64,000 nucleotides of DNA from positions 47,956 to 111,955 of the forward strand of contig DATKWU010000018.1 in NCBI GenBank assembly GCA_035529375.1, given 5' to 3'. Both the position numbers and the translations under genes were made by a program. Below are positions 29,198 through 55,508 of this stretch, in pieces. The notes under the pieces were generated by a model. That model searched no databases and was not told the origin of the DNA. It saw nothing but the letters and a program-made list of their open reading frames with translations. The stretch is from Patescibacteria group bacterium (GTDB taxonomy: Bacteria > Patescibacteriota > Microgenomatia > PFEM01 > JAHIFH01). How positions within the stretch are numbered: the first letter of the stretch is position 1; each line of letters begins with the position of its first letter.

Positions 29198-31543
29198 CTA
29201 AGGGGGTATTTCCTGCCAAGTGTAAGAAGGGGTAAAGAGCACTGAAGGAGCAGTCATCAAAAAGTCTGGTCGGTAAACAAATTTCTCTGCTGGTCTTGTT
29301 CTGTTCAAATCCTCTCCTAAATCTCTTGCCAACTCAAAAGACTGAGCCACAAAAACTCCTTCACCCACAAACTGAACATCGTTGCCTTCACCAACTTTAT
29401 CAACCTCAAACTCTTTATCAGTAATAAAGACTCCTTCCACTTGAGTTACTGTTTCCGCTACCTTGATTTTTCCTGAGGCAATAATGGCTAAAAAGCCATT
29501 AACATCAAGATTACTATCAATATTCACCTCATTATCAACTAAGATAACAATTTTTGTTCCCTCAGGAATACTCCAACCATCAACCGTTAAAGCATCAGCA
29601 GTGTAGTAAACTCCAGAATCAGATGGTAAACCACCACCGTAATCTTCTTCAGGTGAACCCAAAAGTTCATAAAAGTAATTGAATCTCTTCCGAGAAAATT
29701 CTGTATTGGCTAACCAGCCTTCCACAGAGACGTTCCCTTCCCCCCAAGGATTATCTCCCAAAGTTTCTTTATGAGAAACCACGCCTGGAGTGCCTCCCTC
29801 ACCCGCTAAACAAAAATTATCATCCTCTCCAGGTAAATCAGAATTAATACTCTCTTGAGAATGAACATCACCTTCTTGAGCCTGAAACCAAGACCCAGCC
29901 GCCTTAGTCAAACCAATATTGATTGTCTTAGTTTCTCCTCCCTCAGTTAACATCACTTGATTAGTCTCATCACCCTCATCATCACAATAAATCGGATCAG
30001 AATACTCTCCAGGAAAAGCAGTCATCATCACTGTATGCAATTGATCTATAGGTACCTCAAAGGAATAATCAGGATCAGGAGTATCTGTACCATAACCGGC
30101 AATTTGAACGGTACCCCCAGAAACGGTTTCCCCTAATTCAGAACAGGAAGATCCTTCAAAAACCGTCCCCTGAATAGTTCCAGTTGGAGCAGGATAAAGA
30201 ATTGAATCGGCACAATAACTCCATTCAGCTGTTTTAAACTTAACTCTTGCCATTACCGAATTTTCGCCAGGATTAAGCGTTAAAGGATAACTGAAATTTC
30301 CACCCTCAGGAATATCCATAACTGACCCCCAGGTAGATCCACTATCAATACTTAATTGAATTTTGCCATCTTCAACCGCTCGAAAGTGCCATATTCCCAC
30401 TTTATGGGTATACATCGCATCATCTACGTAATAAACAAGAGAATTATTAATAACTTCAGCTTCTGCTTCATGGACGTCATCTGTTTTTAGTAAATTAAGC
30501 TCCATATCATAGAGCTCAAAACTATTAACATTACAATCATTTTCAGGATTTTCTTTTTCAGATATCTGGGAGTAAACAAAGAAATATTTCGTTCCTCTAT
30601 CCATCTGAATTGTTCGCTTCCCTGAACTGGTGTAACTAGCGATGATTGCATTTGCCCTTAAGCCATCACTAAGATGCCAACGCATTCCTCGGGAAAAATT
30701 AAGACTACCGTGGCAACCTGTCTTGTTACACATCCTAAAATCAACACTGAAAGTAAAAGATTTGATCACATAACCAGTTGGAGCAGTAACCTTAAGAGCA
30801 GCTCCACACGGTTGTTCGCCGTCACATATTATGTGCTCAGTAAATCTTAACCGACTGTCTCCCGCAAGGTGTCCAAATTTTCCAGGACCACAAGTTAACT
30901 CACAATCATAGCAGGCGTGACTAGAAGGAGCACAAGTAGTTCCAAAAGCAGGATAACAACCGCGACAGGGTTGACCGGCACTTATACAACTCCTTCTTTT
31001 ATACAAACAGCCATTAATTACTTGACCAAACCGGCAAACTTGGTCACCACCTCCTTCTGTGTAGCCATTACCACCCGGTCCAATACCGTAATACTGAAAA
31101 AGATTCCTGAAAGCGTTACCATGATTACCAACATTCCATGTTTCAAGATAGCCCTCATCCCTTAATTGATTGTCACTCTTGCCCTGAATTCGAGGAGCTA
31201 CTTCAATAAAACAGACAGCGTCTCTTTCAGACCCTTTATTATGTACGGCAAAATCATTGGCGAAAAAGGTTTCTTCACCATCAACCGAAAGATTGTAAAC
31301 TTCAACCGGCTCTTGTTTGTATTCAAGTTTAGTGATTTGCTCAGGCACCAAACCCTCTTCTCCCTTAACAAAAACCACATCGCCAATATTTAATTCCTTA
31401 ACCTGAATAAATCCAGCCTCTTTAATCTCCGGTCCAGGAATTTCCACCACCTCTTGCGCATGAATGGTTTTAGAGAAGACGAAGAATAAACTAATTCCTA
31501 ATATCCAATATCCAATATCTCTAACCGAGAGCAGTTTTTTCAT
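29198..31543 (-). CDS. Large secreted Cys-rich protein beginning with a Hint C-terminal (blocks F/G) segment
   Basis: Hydrophobic N-terminus, then GFIQVKELNIGDVVFVKG...VYNLSVDGEETFFANDFAVHN, then ~680 aa of Cys-rich extracellular sequence. Confidence 0.6.
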   Translation of the reverse strand: MKKLLSVRDIGYWILGISLFFVFSKTIHAQEVVEIPGPEIKEAGFIQVKELNIGDVVFVKGEEGLVPEQITKLEYKQEPVEVYNLSVDGEETFFANDFAVHNKGSERDAVCFIEVAPRIQGKSDNQLRDEGYLETWNVGNHGNAFRNLFQYYGIGPGGNGYTEGGGDQVCRFGQVINGCLYKRRSCISAGQPCRGCYPAFGTTCAPSSHACYDCELTCGPGKFGHLAGDSRLRFTEHIICDGEQPCGAALKVTAPTGYVIKSFTFSVDFRMCNKTGCHGSLNFSRGMRWHLSDGLRANAIIASYTSSGKRTIQMDRGTKYFFVYSQISEKENPENDCNVNSFELYDMELNLLKTDDVHEAEAEVINNSLVYYVDDAMYTHKVGIWHFRAVEDGKIQLSIDSGSTWGSVMDIPEGGNFSYPLTLNPGENSVMARVKFKTAEWSYCADSILYPAPTGTIQGTVFEGSSCSELGETVSGGTVQIAGYGTDTPDPDYSFEVPIDQLHTVMMTAFPGEYSDPIYCDDEGDETNQVMLTEGGETKTINIGLTKAAGSWFQAQEGDVHSQESINSDLPGEDDNFCLAGEGGTPGVVSHKETLGDNPWGEGNVSVEGWLANTEFSRKRFNYFYELLGSPEEDYGGGLPSDSGVYYTADALTVDGWSIPEGTKIVILVDNEVNIDSNLDVNGFLAIIASGKIKVAETVTQVEGVFITDKEFEVDKVGEGNDVQFVGEGVFVAQSFELARDLGEDLNRTRPAEKFVYRPDFLMTAPSVLFTPSYTWQEIPP

Positions 31544-31544
31544 C

Positions 31545-32168
31545 TTATTTTAATATTTCACTTACCTTCGCCTGTAAACCAGTAATCAACCGATAAGTCA
31601 GCGTATTTGAAAGAATATCTTTAAATTTATCAAGTGTTGTTTGGAGTTTGGTGCTTGAAGCTTGGTTATTCTCGCCTTTAATGGCGAGGAATGGGTGTTC
31701 TCCCGTCACCTTCACCTTCTTCCCACTTTCAGTTTCCAGCCCATAGTAGCCTTCCCGAATTGTTTTAGTCACATTAGAAACCGTGCCTTCTTTTATTTCC
31801 CCTGTCTCCGGATTAAACGAAGAAACAATCTCACCCGGTTTCAAGTCTTTAATTTGCTTCGTCTCCCCCTTCTGCTCTCCTGCTCTTTCACCCTCCTGTC
31901 CTAAATTAATCTCCGTTTCCCCAGTAAAACAAGGAGCACCACATGAAGAACAGGGGCAACAATATCCATCGGACATTTCGCAACCAACACACAAACAGTC
32001 ACTCCAGGAACAACCATCCCCCATTTGACCCACCTCAATAATGCAACGTCCACATTCACAAGAAATGCGTCCAGTTGAAGTACAAACATCCCCATAAACA
32101 CTTTTTGCCGTAAACATTAGGACACAAACGGTGAATAGCAAAACTAAAATTAAAGTCTTAGTTCTCAT
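31545..32168 (-). CDS. Secreted Cys-rich protein ending in a Hint N-terminal (blocks A/B) segment
   Basis: Signal peptide, ~50-aa Cys-rich module, then CFTGETEI...TGEHPF running to the C-terminus. The stop TAA is followed by G and then the ATG of the next gene. Confidence 0.6.
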   Translation of the reverse strand: MRTKTLILVLLFTVCVLMFTAKSVYGDVCTSTGRISCECGRCIIEVGQMGDGCSWSDCLCVGCEMSDGYCCPCSSCGAPCFTGETEINLGQEGERAGEQKGETKQIKDLKPGEIVSSFNPETGEIKEGTVSNVTKTIREGYYGLETESGKKVKVTGEHPFLAIKGENNQASSTKLQTTLDKFKDILSNTLTYRLITGLQAKVSEILK

Positions 32169-38367: not shown

Positions 38368-40443
38368 ATGAACAAGACAATTTCCCTTTTGCTTAATCGA
38401 ATTATTGAATCAAGTTTTTATCTTCTTTTTTTCCTGGTTCCTTTGATCCTGACTCCCTGGAACTACGAGCTTTTTGAGTTTAATAAAATGATCCTCGCCT
38501 ATCTCCTAACAGTCGTTATTATTGCTGCCTGGATTGTTAAAATGATTACTGAGAAAAAGATTATCTTTCGTCGGACTATCCTTGACCTTCCTTTAATCCT
38601 TTTTCTTGGTTCCCAAATTATGGCTACTATTTATAGTATTGATCGTCATACTTCCCTTTGGGGTTATTACAGCCGCTTCAATGGCGGTCTTTTCCCCACC
38701 ATCAGCTATCTTCTTCTTTACTGGGCCTATGTCAGTAACTTTAATAAAGAAAAAACCCTGACCACCATTCGCTTTACTCTAGCTTCCACTATCCTCGTCT
38801 CTCTTTATGGCCTTGCTGAACATTTTGGTATTGATGCTCAATATTGGGTCCAAGAAGTTCAAATCAGAGTTTTCTCCACTTTTGGCCAGCCTAATTGGTT
38901 AGCCGCCTGGCTAGTGGCACTCTTACCCCTCACCTGGGCAATGATTCTTCTAAAAAAACAATTAATCTTCAAAAAATTTTCTTTTCCTTATTTTGGTTAT
39001 GTCTTAACTACCATCTTTTTCCTTTGTCTTCTTTACACCAAATCCCGCTCTGGCTTGATTGGTTTGGCAGTGGCCTATCTGGTTTTCTGGGGTTTAACTG
39101 GTTTTCTTAACCGTCAAAAGATAAAAGCATTAACTAAACCCTTTATCAGCCTTTCTCTTCTTCTCCTAGTTCTAACCTTCCTGACCGGCACTCCCTGGAC
39201 CCCTCATCTTGGTCAAATCAAAGAAAAAATAAAAGGAACAACTCAAGAAGCAATCATCTCGGCCGAAGCCCAACAACCAGGCTTGCTTATTAGTGAATCT
39301 GGTGATATCCGCAAAATTGTTTGGCAGGGCGCCCTGGAAATCTGGAAAAACCACCCGATTTTAGGCACCGGCGTTGAAACCTTTGGTTACGCTTATTATT
39401 GGTACCGCCCCCGAGCCCATAATGATGTTTCGGAATGGGATTTACTCTACAACAAAGCCCATAATGAATACCTAACTCTTTTAGCCAACACCGGCTTAAT
39501 TGGTCTCTCTACCTACCTAATCTTAATCGGCACTTTTCTTTTCTGGTCTCTCAAACAAATCATCATTCACTTAAAAAAAGCCAAAGAAACCACTCTCTTA
39601 GTGACGGCTCTCCTCGCTGGTTATATCAGTATCCTCATCACCAACTTTTTTGGCTTTTCGGTAGTCCCGATTAGTCTCCTTTTCTTTCTTATTCCGGCCA
39701 TAGCTATCACTCTCGTCAGTCAGTCAGAAAAAGAACCAAAGCCTAAAAAACAAATTATAGAAAGCAAACAATGGGCCGTGATTATCCTCATCTCTCTTCT
39801 CTCTCTAGGAGCCATCATTTATCTCATCAAATTCTGGTATGCTGATACCCGCTTTGCTTTGGCGGAAAAACTTAATGAGGGAGCTAAATATGATCAGGCC
39901 TATAATGAATTGAAAACCGCTATCAGCCTTCATCCCAGTGAACCCTATTACCGCGCCGAAATGGCTCTCTCTCTGGCTGGTCTAGCCGAATTAGCCCAAG
40001 AAGCGGATGACGCCTCGCTTTCCGCCCAACTAGTTGATTTAGCTATTGCTGAATCAGACCAGGCTTTAAAAACCAGTCCCTATCACCTTAACTTCTGGAA
40101 AAAACGGGCCAAGATGTTTATTAGTCTGGCCTTAGCCAATCCTCACTATGAACAGGCAGCCCTTGAAACTCTCCTCAAAGCCACGGACCTCGCTCCAACT
40201 GATGCCAAAATTCAATACAATCTAGCTCTCCTTTATTCTCATCTTGGTCAAAAAGAAACCGCCATTAAAACCCTGGAACACACCATCGAATTAAAACCCA
40301 ACTACGCTGACGTCCGCTACGCCTTAGCTCTTTTTTATGAAGAAAATAAGCAAAGAGAAGAAGCGAGAAAACAATTAAACTATATTCTGGAAAAGATTAA
40401 TCCGGCAGATACCCGAGCCAGCGACAAACTCAAAACCCTTTGA
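38368..40443 (+). CDS. O-antigen ligase-like (Wzy_C) polytopic membrane protein with C-terminal TPR repeats
   Basis: AHNEYLTLLANTGLIGL motif, ~10 TM helices and C-terminal TPR-like repeats. 4-nt overlap with the downstream radical SAM gene. Confidence 0.7.
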   Translation: MNKTISLLLNRIIESSFYLLFFLVPLILTPWNYELFEFNKMILAYLLTVVIIAAWIVKMITEKKIIFRRTILDLPLILFLGSQIMATIYSIDRHTSLWGYYSRFNGGLFPTISYLLLYWAYVSNFNKEKTLTTIRFTLASTILVSLYGLAEHFGIDAQYWVQEVQIRVFSTFGQPNWLAAWLVALLPLTWAMILLKKQLIFKKFSFPYFGYVLTTIFFLCLLYTKSRSGLIGLAVAYLVFWGLTGFLNRQKIKALTKPFISLSLLLLVLTFLTGTPWTPHLGQIKEKIKGTTQEAIISAEAQQPGLLISESGDIRKIVWQGALEIWKNHPILGTGVETFGYAYYWYRPRAHNDVSEWDLLYNKAHNEYLTLLANTGLIGLSTYLILIGTFLFWSLKQIIIHLKKAKETTLLVTALLAGYISILITNFFGFSVVPISLLFFLIPAIAITLVSQSEKEPKPKKQIIESKQWAVIILISLLSLGAIIYLIKFWYADTRFALAEKLNEGAKYDQAYNELKTAISLHPSEPYYRAEMALSLAGLAELAQEADDASLSAQLVDLAIAESDQALKTSPYHLNFWKKRAKMFISLALANPHYEQAALETLLKATDLAPTDAKIQYNLALLYSHLGQKETAIKTLEHTIELKPNYADVRYALALFYEENKQREEARKQLNYILEKINPADTRASDKLKTL

Positions 40444-42788
40444 TGAAAAAAACCCTGCTCGCCAAAACATTAAAGAATAAAAAAGTTGCCTGTTTTACCT
40501 GCCAACGCCGATGCCAAATCTCACCAGACCAATGGGGTTTTTGTCAAACTAGGATTAATAAAAACGGAACCCTCAAATCAGTCATCTATGGCGTCGTTTC
40601 TTCAGTTAACCTTGATCCGATTGAAAAAAAGCCAGTCTTTCATTATAAACCAGGCTCAAATTGTCTTTCTCTTGGGACTTATGGTTGTAATTTCAAATGT
40701 GCTTTTTGTTTTCTTCCTGACACAAATATTGCTACAGAAAAAGGTATTTATAACCTTAAAAAACTTTTTGAACTTAATAAAAAACCGCGTGTTTATAGTC
40801 ATACCGGAAAACTAAGAAAAATTAATAAAGTTTTTCGTCACCGATATGATGGAAAAATTATAACAATAAAACCTTATTACGCCCCTCAAATAGAATGTAC
40901 TCCTTCACACGAATTTTTCGTCACAACTAATTCTCAAGATAATAAAATTCAAAAAATAAAAGCTAAAGATTTAACTAAAAAGCATTATCTGCTAATTCCT
41001 AAAAATTATCCTTTTTCAAAACTGTCCACTTTTGATCTTAACAAGGTTCTTTACTCTTCAATAGGAGAATATAGAAAATCAAGAAAGACTTCATACAACG
41101 ATATCTTAAAAATTCTCGAATTAAGTCAAAATGGAACCACATCTAGAATTATAGGAGATACTTTTAATCTCCATCCCGCGTATGTTAGAACTTTACGTTC
41201 ACGATTGAAAAATAAGAAAATCATTCAGAAAGAGATTGTTTTTGGAAAAAACCTCCTAATAGAAAAAAATGGAGGAATTAAATTTAAGACTGAAAAACAA
41301 CCATCACTTCCTCGTTTTATTGCTCTTGACAAGAATCTTGCTAAACTTCTGGGTTATTATTGCGCAGAAGGATGGGTAGTAAAAAATAAATCACGTCCTA
41401 ATTCATTTCAAATAAGTTTTGCTTTCTCAAAAAAAGAAAGACATTATGCTGAAGAGGTAAAGAAGTTAATTGTAACCATTTTCGGGATCAATCCAAAAAT
41501 CGTGACGCGAGAAACGACAGTCACGGTAGAAATCGGTAAGTCAAGTTTAGCTCTTTTCTTCAAAAATCTTTGTGGTTCGACAGCCTTGAAAAAAAGAGTC
41601 CCAGCAGAAATTAATCAATCCCCAAGAGAAATTATTCAACAATTCCTAGAAGGATATATTAATGGCGATGGTTGGCGAAAACCTGACGAAATAGCAATTA
41701 ATACTGTCTCTCCTACGCTCGCTATTGGAATATATTGGCTGGTCTTAAAACTAGGCTTTTTACCACGATTTTATAAGTGGGAACCATCCATTACTAAAAA
41801 AATCGGTACAAGATTAGTCAAACAATCAACTCTCTATTACGTCAAATGGAAAATTAAAAAACCAACTACTCCTAAAGCTAAAGCTTCGACCAAATATATA
41901 GAAAAAAATGGTTACTATTTCATACCAATAAATAAAATCAATAAAAGAAAGTATCGCGGAGAAGTTTTTAATCTTGAAATTGAAAAAGATCATTCGTATT
42001 TAGCAAACTTTATTGGTGTAGGAAATTGCCAAAATTGGGATATTAGCCATACCAACGGGGCTTCGATTAACCTTGACAACCAAAAACTTCTTTCTCCAAA
42101 AGAAGCTATTAAAATGGCGAAAAAATCAGGCGCTGAAGGAATTGCCTGGACCTACAACGAACCGGCTATCTGGCTAGAATACTCTCTAGATGGCGCCAAA
42201 CTCGCCCAAAAAGAGAAGATTTACACTTGTTGGGTGACTAATGGCTATGCCACTAAAGAAGCGATTGATAAAATTGCTCCCTATCTCAACATTTACCGAG
42301 TTGACCTGAAAAGTTTTGATAATAAGCTCTACAAAAAATTAATTGGTGTCCCCCAAGCCAAAGGGGTTTTCGAAGTCACCAAATACGTTCATAATCAATA
42401 TCCCGAGATTCATCTTGAATGCGTGACCAACATTATCCCCACCTGGAATGATTCAGAAAATAATCTCAAGAAAATAGCTCACTGGATTGTTAAAAACCTG
42501 GGCAAAAAAACTCCCTGGCACGTCACCCGATTCTTTCCCTACGCTGACCTGACCAATGTCCCCCCTACGCCACCAGAAACTCTGCTCAAAGCCAGAAAAA
42601 TAGGGATGAAAGAAGGTTTAGAATTTGTCTATATTGGTAACCTACCAGTTGATGAAGAAGACGATACCTTTTGTCCTAAGTGTCATAACTTAGCCATTAG
42701 AAGAACTGGCTACCGAACCGAAATCCTAGCCGTTGATAAAGACGGTCACTGTTCTGACTGTGGTGAAGATTTGAATATCAGAATGTGA
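40440..42788 (+). CDS. Radical SAM enzyme of the AmmeMemoRadiSam-system type (PFL-activating-enzyme-like) containing a 440-aa intein
   Basis: N-extein ends GCNFKCAF and the C-extein starts CQNWDISH. This rebuilds CNFKCAFCQNW (CxxxCxxC-QNW) with a spliced length of ~342 aa. A C-terminal Cys pair is also present. Confidence 0.75.
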   Translation: MMKKTLLAKTLKNKKVACFTCQRRCQISPDQWGFCQTRINKNGTLKSVIYGVVSSVNLDPIEKKPVFHYKPGSNCLSLGTYGCNFKCAFCFLPDTNIATEKGIYNLKKLFELNKKPRVYSHTGKLRKINKVFRHRYDGKIITIKPYYAPQIECTPSHEFFVTTNSQDNKIQKIKAKDLTKKHYLLIPKNYPFSKLSTFDLNKVLYSSIGEYRKSRKTSYNDILKILELSQNGTTSRIIGDTFNLHPAYVRTLRSRLKNKKIIQKEIVFGKNLLIEKNGGIKFKTEKQPSLPRFIALDKNLAKLLGYYCAEGWVVKNKSRPNSFQISFAFSKKERHYAEEVKKLIVTIFGINPKIVTRETTVTVEIGKSSLALFFKNLCGSTALKKRVPAEINQSPREIIQQFLEGYINGDGWRKPDEIAINTVSPTLAIGIYWLVLKLGFLPRFYKWEPSITKKIGTRLVKQSTLYYVKWKIKKPTTPKAKASTKYIEKNGYYFIPINKINKRKYRGEVFNLEIEKDHSYLANFIGVGNCQNWDISHTNGASINLDNQKLLSPKEAIKMAKKSGAEGIAWTYNEPAIWLEYSLDGAKLAQKEKIYTCWVTNGYATKEAIDKIAPYLNIYRVDLKSFDNKLYKKLIGVPQAKGVFEVTKYVHNQYPEIHLECVTNIIPTWNDSENNLKKIAHWIVKNLGKKTPWHVTRFFPYADLTNVPPTPPETLLKARKIGMKEGLEFVYIGNLPVDEEDDTFCPKCHNLAIRRTGYRTEILAVDKDGHCSDCGEDLNIRM
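40707..42026 (+). mobile_element. Intein with LAGLIDADG homing endonuclease domain
   Basis: Block A CFLPDTNIATEKG, block B TPSHEF, LAGLIDADG-like motifs (LLGYYCAEGW, FLEGYINGDGW) and block G VFNLEIEKDHSYLANFIGVGN followed by a +1 Cys. Confidence 0.7.
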
Positions 42789-53257: not shown

Positions 53258-53569
53258 CTACTTTGGCAAGAAGCGAATTTCGAGACGCGTATTTAAAGCT
53301 CCAGCTAACCGCTGAAGAAAATTTAAAGAAGGATTAGCCTTTCCAGATTCTAACCGAGAAATGGCTGATTGTTTAGTCTTCATTCTTCTTGCTAACTCTT
53401 TTTGAGTTACCCCTTCTTTTACTCTTGAATCAATAATTTTTCTAATAATAGCAAACTCTGGTTGAAGCTCCAGATAAACCTGACGAACCTTGGGGTCTTT
53501 CATCAATTGTTTCCGATGTTCTCTCCAGGTCATTAACTTTTCTTTTCTACGTCTTTTTGTTTCACTCAT
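53258..53569 (-). CDS. XRE-family HTH antitoxin (HigA-like)
   Basis: HTH (QKELARRMKTKQSAISRLESGK) located downstream of a HigB/Gp49-like toxin gene. Confidence 0.7.
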   Translation of the reverse strand: MSETKRRRKEKLMTWREHRKQLMKDPKVRQVYLELQPEFAIIRKIIDSRVKEGVTQKELARRMKTKQSAISRLESGKANPSLNFLQRLAGALNTRLEIRFLPK

Positions 53570-53590
53570 GGGTTCAATATATCATATATG

Positions 53591-53917
53591 TTATAACTTG
53601 TCAAGACGCAAAAGAGCTGTCTTGATTTCTTTAAGTGGGGTTCTTTGAGTTTTCTTTTTAAAAGCATGAAGAAGAATAATATTTCTTTCTCGCACCGTAT
53701 ATAAAACCCTAATTTGTTCTTTACCAGTTATCCTTAGTTCGTATAAATCTTTTCTTAACTTTTTAGTATATTTTCCACTTAAAAATGGCCCATATTCTTC
53801 AAGAAAATCAATCATCCCAATATATTTAGCTTTGACGACAGGAGCCAGCCCATCAATAAACTTCTTAACAAATCTCTCACCCCGAGGACTCTCAAAATAA
53901 ACCACTCTCCAAGCCAT
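53591..53917 (-). CDS. RelE/ParE-superfamily toxin, HigB/Gp49-like
   Basis: 108 aa with YELRI...IRVLY...IILLHAFKKKTQ pattern. Toxin-first, antitoxin-second order. Confidence 0.6.
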   Translation of the reverse strand: MAWRVVYFESPRGERFVKKFIDGLAPVVKAKYIGMIDFLEEYGPFLSGKYTKKLRKDLYELRITGKEQIRVLYTVRERNIILLHAFKKKTQRTPLKEIKTALLRLDKL

Positions 53918-54989: not shown

Positions 54990-55508
54990 ATGGATCCAGT
55001 CATTAAACTTGCCAAACAAACAATTGAAACCTATCTTAAAACCAACCAAATTCCTCCTTTACCAGAAAAATTGCCTTCTGAATTGCTCAAGAAAAGAGCT
55101 GGGGTTTTTGTCTCTATCCATAAAAAAGACGGCTCCCTTAGAGGCTGTATTGGTACCTTCTTACCGACTAAACCCAACCTTGCCCTAGAAATTATAACCA
55201 ATGCCATCTCTTCAGCCACTCAGGACCCCAGATTCCCACCAATCACCAAAGAAGAACTCCCATCTTTAATCTATTCTGTTGATGTTCTTTCAGAACCAAA
55301 AAGAGCCAACAAAAAACAACTCAACCCCCAAAAACATGGTCTGATTGTGGCCACTAAAGATGGCCGCCGGGGATTGCTTTTACCGGCTCTCCCTAATGTT
55401 AAAACCGTAGAGCACCAAATTGAAATTTGCAAAATGAAAGCAGGGATTGGTCCCAAAGAAGAAGTCGAATTCCAAACTTTTACAGTCAAGAGACACGAAG
55501 AAAAGTAG
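54990..55508 (+). CDS. AMMECR1 domain protein
   Basis: AGVFVSIHKKDGSLRGCIGT signature. Confidence 0.8.
   Translation: MDPVIKLAKQTIETYLKTNQIPPLPEKLPSELLKKRAGVFVSIHKKDGSLRGCIGTFLPTKPNLALEIITNAISSATQDPRFPPITKEELPSLIYSVDVLSEPKRANKKQLNPQKHGLIVATKDGRRGLLLPALPNVKTVEHQIEICKMKAGIGPKEEVEFQTFTVKRHEEK

Follow-up and report, generated by a model that had tools for sequence, protein, structure and literature searches.

A predicted intein in the cluster motif of a radical SAM enzyme

We analysed a 64,000-nucleotide stretch of a Patescibacteria group bacterium genome (contig DATKWU010000018.1, positions 47,956 to 111,955 of the forward strand), hereafter the window, and in it a gene for an AmmeMemoRadiSam-type radical S-adenosylmethionine (SAM) enzyme, interrupted by an insert with the features of an intein. 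A continuous open reading frame (ORF) runs from 40440 to 42788 on the forward strand. Its first two codons are TTG, in frame at 40440, and ATG; the ATG at 40443 is the likely start and overlaps the stop codon of the upstream Wzy_C/TPR gene (TGATG). An earlier examination of this DNA from its letters and reading frames (the sequence-only reading) had reported an ORF of 782 amino acids (aa) at these positions and an intein at 40707..42026. Both were borne out, the ATG start giving 781 aa. The gene and its predicted parts are:

40443..42788, forward strand: precursor gene of the intein-interrupted AmmeMemoRadiSam-type radical SAM enzyme, 781 aa from the ATG
40443..40706, forward strand: N-extein, 88 aa, with an N-terminal Cys motif (C17, C20, C24, C34) and the first two cluster cysteines (CNFKCAF)
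40707..42026, forward strand: intein, 440 aa, from Cys1 (CFLPD) to the terminal Asn (VGN)
40707..40922, forward strand: N-terminal splicing region of the intein (TIGR01445), with block A (Cys1) and block B (TPSH, intein residues 65-68)
41091..41213, forward strand: three-helix, helix-turn-helix (HTH)-like insertion (TSRIIGDTFNLHPAYVRTLRSRL), intein residues 129-169, between the splicing and endonuclease domains
41337..41378, forward strand: LAGLIDADG motif 1 (LAKLLGYYCAEGWV, LLGYYCAEGW; PF14528), with Glu221 of the intein as putative catalytic acid
41631..41678, forward strand: LAGLIDADG motif 2 (IIQQFLEGYINGDGWR, FLEGYINGDGW; second stretch of PF14528), with Asp321 of the intein as putative catalytic acid
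41961..42026, forward strand: C-terminal blocks F and G (EVFNLEIEKDHSYLANFIGVGN), with F:4 Asn, F:13 His, a penultimate Gly and the last Asn
42027..42788, forward strand: C-extein, 253 aa and stop, whose +1 Cys is the third cluster Cys (CQNW), followed by the rest of the barrel

The 781-aa precursor is 100% identical to a protein already held by NCBI, P0001, entered as 'MAG TPA: radical SAM protein [Patescibacteria group bacterium]'. It reads LGTYGCNFKCAF up to the first junction, continues with CFLPDTNIATEKG and through to SYLANFIGVGN, and resumes after the second junction with CQNWDISH; the N-extein thus ends in YGCNFKCAF and the intein begins with CFLPDTNIA. Both the translation and the junctions of homologous proteins place the insert exactly within the CxxxCxxC motif, between its second and third Cys, as the sequence-only reading had proposed. 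Removing the intein in silico leaves 341 aa from the ATG (342 from the TTG), with the motif CNFKCAFCQNW. Moving the boundary by one Cys (an intein FLPD...GNC) would yield the same product, and it would leave the insert with neither a nucleophile at position 1 nor a terminal Asn; this placement was rejected. In an alignment of 60 homologs, C82 and C86 of the N-extein and the +1 Cys (C529) are all invariant. The C-extein also holds a C-terminal CxxC...CxxC motif.

The spliced product belongs to the AmmeMemoRadiSam family

The spliced protein scored 301.5 bits on TIGR04337, the NCBIfam model of the AmmeMemoRadiSam radical SAM enzyme (cut-off 220), in a single stretch that aligns residues 9-338 to profile positions 5-329 of 349. 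The host type named by the sequence-only reading is therefore supported above NCBIfam's own cut-off. A HMMER scan with the spliced protein, covering 1.84 billion representatives, returned 6675 relatives. The best of these, P0140, is an intein-free protein of 360 aa whose cluster is named by NCBI as an Armatimonadota AmmeMemoRadiSam enzyme; BLASTP aligned it to the spliced product with 53% identity across 341 aa, ungapped at GCNFKCAFCQNW (GTYGCNFKCAFCQNWDISH versus GTLGCNFRCVFCQNWQIAY). Among the best 150 of the 6675 representatives, most are proteins of about 340 aa that match in a single stretch, and about 10 are intein carriers of about 800 aa that match in two stretches.

The cluster motif also aligns to GCLMRCLYCHN of the Escherichia coli pyruvate-formate lyase (PFL) activating enzyme (PFL-AE, 3c8f), which identifies the +1 Cys as the third ligand of the [4Fe-4S] cluster. 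The alignment to uninterrupted homologs, suggested as a check when the insert was first noticed, is thus colinear and leaves no gap at the junction, both over P0140 and across the motif of PFL-AE. The product passes the cut-off of the intein-free TIGR04337 enzymes and is colinear with them, and the AMMECR1 partner gene is also present in the window (see below); most members of that family, however, have no intein, unlike the gene studied here. The gene provides a clean, high-confidence case of an Fe-S ligand Cys that doubles as a splicing nucleophile. Moreover, genes of this kind are often annotated as 'radical SAM protein', 'PFL activating enzyme' or 'LAGLIDADG homing endonuclease', and recognizing the intein recovers the true host family.

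The insert combines a splicing domain with a LAGLIDADG endonuclease

Profile searches with the insert gave 60.9 bits on PF14890 (Intein_splicing, cut-off 35.8), 45.1 bits on PF14528 (LAGLIDADG_3, two stretches, cut-off 22.5) and 40.4 bits on TIGR01445 (intein_Nterm, intein residues 1-72, cut-off 24.5). An AlphaFold2 model of the entire precursor, built from 60 homologs, had a mean predicted local distance difference test score (pLDDT) of 89.4; values below 50 were confined to two segments, residues 83-86 and 530-541, which are the halves of the split cluster loop. When the insert part of the model was compared with the PDB using Foldseek, PI-PkoII (2cw7) ranked first (E 1.4e-23), together with the Tli and Pho VMA inteins, PI-SceI, PI-PfuI and I-DmoI, while the extein part matched the PFL activating enzyme (3cb8), NifB and LIAS. 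By sequence, too, the nearest solved relative is PI-PkoII (phmmer E 7e-20), followed by two VMA inteins, and LAGLIDADG motif 1 aligns to LAKLLGYYVSEGY of PI-PkoII.

The insert has the hallmarks of a class 1 intein: Cys1, Thr-x-x-His in block B, a terminal Asn followed by Cys+1, the profile score and the HINT fold. It also has those of a two-motif LAGLIDADG enzyme, with both acidic residues in place and PF14528 above its cut-off. Cys1, the TPSH block B, the two LAGLIDADG motifs, the terminal Asn and the +1 Cys were each found as the sequence-only reading had described them. All together, we are highly confident that the gene carries a class 1 intein directly before the third Cys of CxxxCxxC, with a LAGLIDADG homing endonuclease that looks intact. 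For this gene, the intein-less DNA target can be reconstructed as TATGGTTGTAATTTCAAATGTGCTTTT / TGCCAAAATTGGGATATTAGCCATACC, the slash marking the insertion point.

The HTH-like module between the two domains is formed by helices at residues 218-229, 234-240 and 245-255 of the precursor model. Its pattern (TSRxIGxxxGxHPxYVRxL) is kept in the inteins of radical SAM sites and absent from related inteins in IscU, Dcm and methyltransferase hosts, and one homolog, P0062, has a precomputed match to PF13936. The module may serve in additional DNA recognition.

The base composition of the intein differs from that of its surroundings: its GC content is 31% (down to 26-27% in 150-nt windows), against 38-42% in the exteins and 38.6% in the whole window. 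This lower GC content, and nothing else, would fit an assembly chimera or the insertion of a domain other than an intein. Yet 8 contigs of independent assemblies encode the identical 781-aa protein, more than 100 homologs share the junction, and the insert has intein profile matches and a HINT and LAGLIDADG fold. A chimera or non-intein insertion is thereby effectively refuted, and we give it a probability close to nil.

A large intein family occupies the same codon

An initial database search returned about 88 intein-bearing homolog clusters, an intein-only search added more, and the intein allele family now comprises more than 250 protein clusters in public data. Every full-length sequence has the same junction: CxxxCxx, then the intein from C to N, then C(Q/C)N(W/Y/F/H). 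The intein of the window is one of a large family and no isolated event.

Conservation was counted in a MAFFT alignment of 110 inteins that occupy this exact site. These have diverged to about 32% identity, and still Cys1, the block B Thr, the block B His and the terminal Asn are each present in 110/110. The acidic residues of the endonuclease are nearly as constant, with Glu or Asp in motif 1 of 109/110 and Asp or Glu in motif 2 of 107/110; a conserved Lys is found in 109/110.

To scan species, we used one genome per GTDB species and a 5-sequence alignment, with a single peptide pattern, [KEW]LLG[YI][YF]CAE. The scan gave 64 loci, 57 of them with a complete junction. The sources of these 57 include Micrarchaeota, Chloroflexota (Anaerolineae, Thermoflexus), Nitrososphaerota, Calditenuis, Acidobacteriota, Usitatibacter, Gemmataceae, Omnitrophota, Armatimonadota, Rokubacteria and Patescibacteria of the candidate phyla radiation (Falkowbacteria), among others. 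Because one peptide pattern was used, this taxon list is a lower bound; with that single pattern, no Pyrococcus locus was returned. Overall, inteins at the site occur in a dozen or more phyla, both bacterial and archaeal, and in several radical SAM families. The same intein occupies this motif position in at least three other radical SAM families, whose members fall under the TIGR04337 cut-off: P0084 and P0100 (of the 'putative PFL activating enzyme' type), P0098, and P0125 (SPASM/NirJ-like). Compared with the window copy, the exteins of these hosts are about 20-25% identical, whereas their inteins are 33-40% identical.

Among AmmeMemoRadiSam hosts, copies whose inteins are closer to that of the window also have closer exteins (Spearman correlation of the two identities 0.78; for example 75/72, 69/58 and 46/46%). 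This pattern suggests long vertical residence with occasional jumps between families by way of the conserved motif, and in the lineage of the window the intein appears to be old and vertically inherited. The conserved active site and the occupation of one codon across phyla and families suggest that the endonuclease is, or recently was, active.

What emerges is a very large, apparently undescribed intein allele family with a signature of its own: no penultimate His, Asn at F:4 and the HTH-like module.

The penultimate residue and splicing competence

The sequence-only reading had drawn attention to the penultimate residue of the intein, Gly instead of the usual His. The Gly is present, but it is no oddity of this copy, a residue other than His being the rule at the site: the 110 inteins have Gly (47), Ser (30), Ala (22), Lys (5), Cys (4), Glu (1) or His (1), that is, non-His in 109/110. 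The usual Asp at F:4 is replaced as well, by Asn in 109 of the 110 site inteins, and F:4 is also Asn in distant relatives in other hosts. The penultimate position behaves differently in those relatives whose hosts are not radical SAM enzymes (P0090, P0131, P0134, P0135): His-Asn is kept in IscU/NifU_N, before the ligand Cys of CGD, in the C5-methyltransferase Dcm, before the catalytic Cys of PCQ, and also within SAM methyltransferase and glycosyltransferase hosts. As far as these alignments reach, the loss of His is confined to the radical SAM site, and it is a real, unexplained signature.

Several observations weigh against our interpretation of the insert as a functional intein with its endonuclease. 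Two assisting positions are non-canonical, G:6 (Gly) and F:4 (Asn). The C-terminal model TIGR01443 scored 14.4 bits, slightly under its cut-off of 15.6. No close intein-free allele was found, the nearest being 53-54% identical, and recent mobility in the lineage of the window is therefore unsupported. Finally, splicing and endonuclease activity are both deduced from conservation. Regarding the first point, the His at G:6 and the Asp at F:4 are assisting, non-essential residues (Journal of Biological Chemistry review, PMC4031507), and splicing without a penultimate His has been documented (Chen, Benner and Perler 2000; Ssp DnaE intein; cited in PMC4031507). The penultimate substitution is thus no argument against splicing.

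The non-canonical Gly and Asn and the sub-threshold TIGR01443 score would also fit a decayed intein that no longer splices, in which case the gene would be a pseudogene or would encode a permanently interrupted, inactive enzyme. However, the frame is open across 781 codons, the exteins show normal conservation for their family (301.5 bits) and the window also holds an intact gene for the AMMECR1 partner. Moreover, the nucleophiles and the Thr and His of block B are invariant in 110 copies that have diverged to about 32% identity, a pattern that would be unexpected without selection for splicing. We consider decay very improbable, and retain the class 1 intein with an intact-looking endonuclease as the explanation of the insert.

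Relation to known inteins

Inteins typically lie in conserved catalytic motifs, directly before a Cys, Ser or Thr. In fold, the intein of the window resembles PI-PkoII (Thermococcus kodakarensis Pol intein 2, 2cw7) and the Tli and Pho VMA inteins (7qsu, 7qss, 7qst), which have the same HINT and two-motif LAGLIDADG organization and share the motifs LAKLLGYY.SEG and FLEGY..GDG with it. It differs from them in its host (theirs are DNA polymerase and V-ATPase), in its C-terminal residues (theirs end in His-Asn), in sequence (about 17-18% identity) and by the additional three-helix HTH-like insertion.

Closer in host is the Pyrococcus abyssi MoaA intein (Callahan et al. 2011, Nature Structural & Molecular Biology), which also lies within an oxygen-sensitive radical SAM Fe-S enzyme and has the same C-x-x-C1 arrangement as the window intein. 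Its host is MoaA and not an AmmeMemoRadiSam enzyme, and comes from a hyperthermophilic archaeon; we compared it by its published description.

Intein-containing radical SAM proteins have already been curated in the NCBIfam exception models NF045703 (tetraether lipid synthase Tes) and NF038136 (Rv2578c family). The best NCBIfam match of the window intein is indeed the intein part of NF045703 (57.8 bits), and the intein at another site of a related protein (site b of P0077, see below) matches NF038136. These models describe other host families, and the scores are far under the family cut-offs, the intein portions alone being matched. Intein domains already appear in the precomputed Pfam annotation of the public protein, and some homologs carry the JGI name 'pyruvate-formate lyase-activating enzyme/intein/homing endonuclease'. 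On the other hand, in the literature that we searched, no paper describes an intein in an AmmeMemoRadiSam enzyme or one in CxxxCxxC as such, and radical SAM hosts are unmentioned in Novikova et al. (2016). The finding is thus well supported and unsurprising to an intein specialist, but it comes from a large, apparently undescribed allele family.

Two inteins in one motif

In a thaumarchaeal-type lineage of AmmeMemoRadiSam enzymes, a single CxxxCxxC motif holds two inteins with three residues between them (P0077, P0079, P0290-P0406; locus L066, 4001-7387). The order is CNWL, intein b (CHPxG...VHN), C(R/K)Y, intein c (CF.P...N) and CQN: intein b lies before the second Cys and intein c before the third, separated by a middle extein of three residues, C-R/K-Y. 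When 120 clusters were classified with regular expressions, 52 had both inteins, 40 had only c and 25 had only b; 3 partial sequences were unclassifiable. Each site is found with full-length inteins and with mini-inteins of about 175-200 aa. The full-length form at site b has 353 aa and a DUF559/Vsr-like endonuclease, and that at site c has about 400-470 aa and a LAGLIDADG endonuclease. The P0077 gene lies uninterrupted, as a single ORF, on a contig of 55.7 kb, and its product, doubly spliced in silico, scored 331.5 bits on TIGR04337.

Neighbouring intein sites have a precedent, since DnaB has insertion sites two residues apart (Novikova et al. 2016). Routine co-occupancy around a 3-residue middle extein is nonetheless striking, more so than the intein of the window. 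Full-length and mini forms, in single and double occupancy, provide a natural panel in which to test redox-conditional switching beyond the MoaA precedent.

Proposed splicing pathway and possible redox gating

The insert has all residues that the class 1 pathway requires. After translation, an N-S acyl shift at Cys1 would open this pathway. The Cys+1, a future cluster ligand, would then attack the thioester (trans-thioesterification), the terminal Asn would cyclise and free the intein, and an S-N shift would join CNFKCAF to CQNW. Only this splicing would make the cluster-binding loop, with which the barrel starts, contiguous and the enzyme functional. Radical SAM barrels start with the three-cysteine loop, which in the precursor receives 440 residues and is disordered in the model. 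The mature [4Fe-4S]/SAM site very probably forms only after splicing. That the host enzyme is unable to bind its cluster before then, as the sequence-only reading had stated, is an inference; the precursor still presents a C-x3-C-x2-C triad, made of C-7 (C82), C-3 (C86) and Cys1 of the intein. As to the origin of the intein, the endonuclease would recognise the DNA of the conserved motif in intein-free alleles, and this would explain how the same intein came to occupy one codon across many phyla and several radical SAM families.

The position of the intein raises the possibility that it acts as a redox- or Fe-S-gated switch. If C-3 and Cys1 formed a disulfide, or if C-7, C-3 and Cys1 mimicked CxxxCxxC and bound a metal or cluster, the first splicing step would be blocked, and reducing conditions would be needed to release the oxygen-labile enzyme. 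The loss of the penultimate His at this particular site could belong to the tuning. The N-extein ends in C-A-F, so that C-3 and Cys1 are spaced as CxxC, and C-3 itself never varies, being a cluster ligand. Splicing of the P. abyssi MoaA intein is blocked by a native Cys-3/Cys1 disulfide until it is reduced (PMC3922620; PMC10663303). The near-absence of His at the penultimate position (109/110 non-His), set against His-Asn in the IscU, Dcm, methyltransferase and glycosyltransferase relatives, points in the same direction, and the similar divergence rates of intein and extein are consistent with long retention.

However, redox control was demonstrated for the MoaA intein, whereas for the window intein we infer it at every step. 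C-3 is there for reasons independent of the intein, and homing into conserved DNA, combined with the required +1 nucleophile, already predicts insertion before a catalytic Cys. The conserved endonuclease residues, likewise, fit selfish maintenance as well. We therefore put gating forward as a tentative possibility, on the unlikely side. It could be extended to the whole family: inteins of radical SAM motifs might be conserved, domesticated gating devices that hold splicing until the cell is reducing or has adequate Fe-S, with the loss of His tuning the C-terminal step and the double-intein lineage placing a double lock on cluster assembly. We regard this extension as speculative and quite doubtful.

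Partner genes and other features of the window

Two genes of the window bear on the AmmeMemoRadiSam system of the intein-interrupted enzyme:

54990..55508, forward strand: AMMECR1 gene (AmmeMemoRadiSam system protein A), TIGR04335 139.1 bits (cut-off 99), PF01871 158.5 bits
53981..54601, forward strand: LigB-family ORF adjoining the AMMECR1 gene, PF02900 (LigB) 99.7 bits, with no NCBIfam match

The AMMECR1 gene is intact and lies 12 kb downstream of the radical SAM gene, to which it is not adjacent. No Memo-type partner (TIGR04336 / PF01875) was found in the 64-kb window, where tblastn with the Memo part of P0089 gave non-significant matches and NCBIfam gave none. Memo and LigB-type dioxygenases are structurally related, and the LigB-family ORF may stand in for the Memo partner. 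The three-gene AmmeMemoRadiSam system is thus dispersed here, with AMMECR1 12 kb away and preceded by a LigB-family ORF instead of a recognisable Memo gene.

Elsewhere in the window, two adjacent ORFs on the reverse strand each carry half of a HINT domain. The first (31545..32168) encodes 207 aa with a signal peptide and a Cys-rich region, and ends in blocks A and B (CFTGETEI...VTGEHPF). The second (29198..31543) encodes 781 aa with a hydrophobic N-terminus, and has near its start blocks F and G (VYNLSVDGEETFFANDFAVHN), HN being followed by Lys. Together they may represent a bacterial domain of intein-like type, split or disrupted, in predicted secreted proteins; canonical splicing of the pair is excluded, since the +1 residue is Lys.

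Finally, two small ORFs of 108 and 103 aa, separated by a 21-nt gap, lie at 53258..53917 on the reverse strand. By eye they resemble a toxin-antitoxin pair, and the downstream ORF has what looks like an XRE-type HTH signature (QKELARRMKTKQSAISRLESG).

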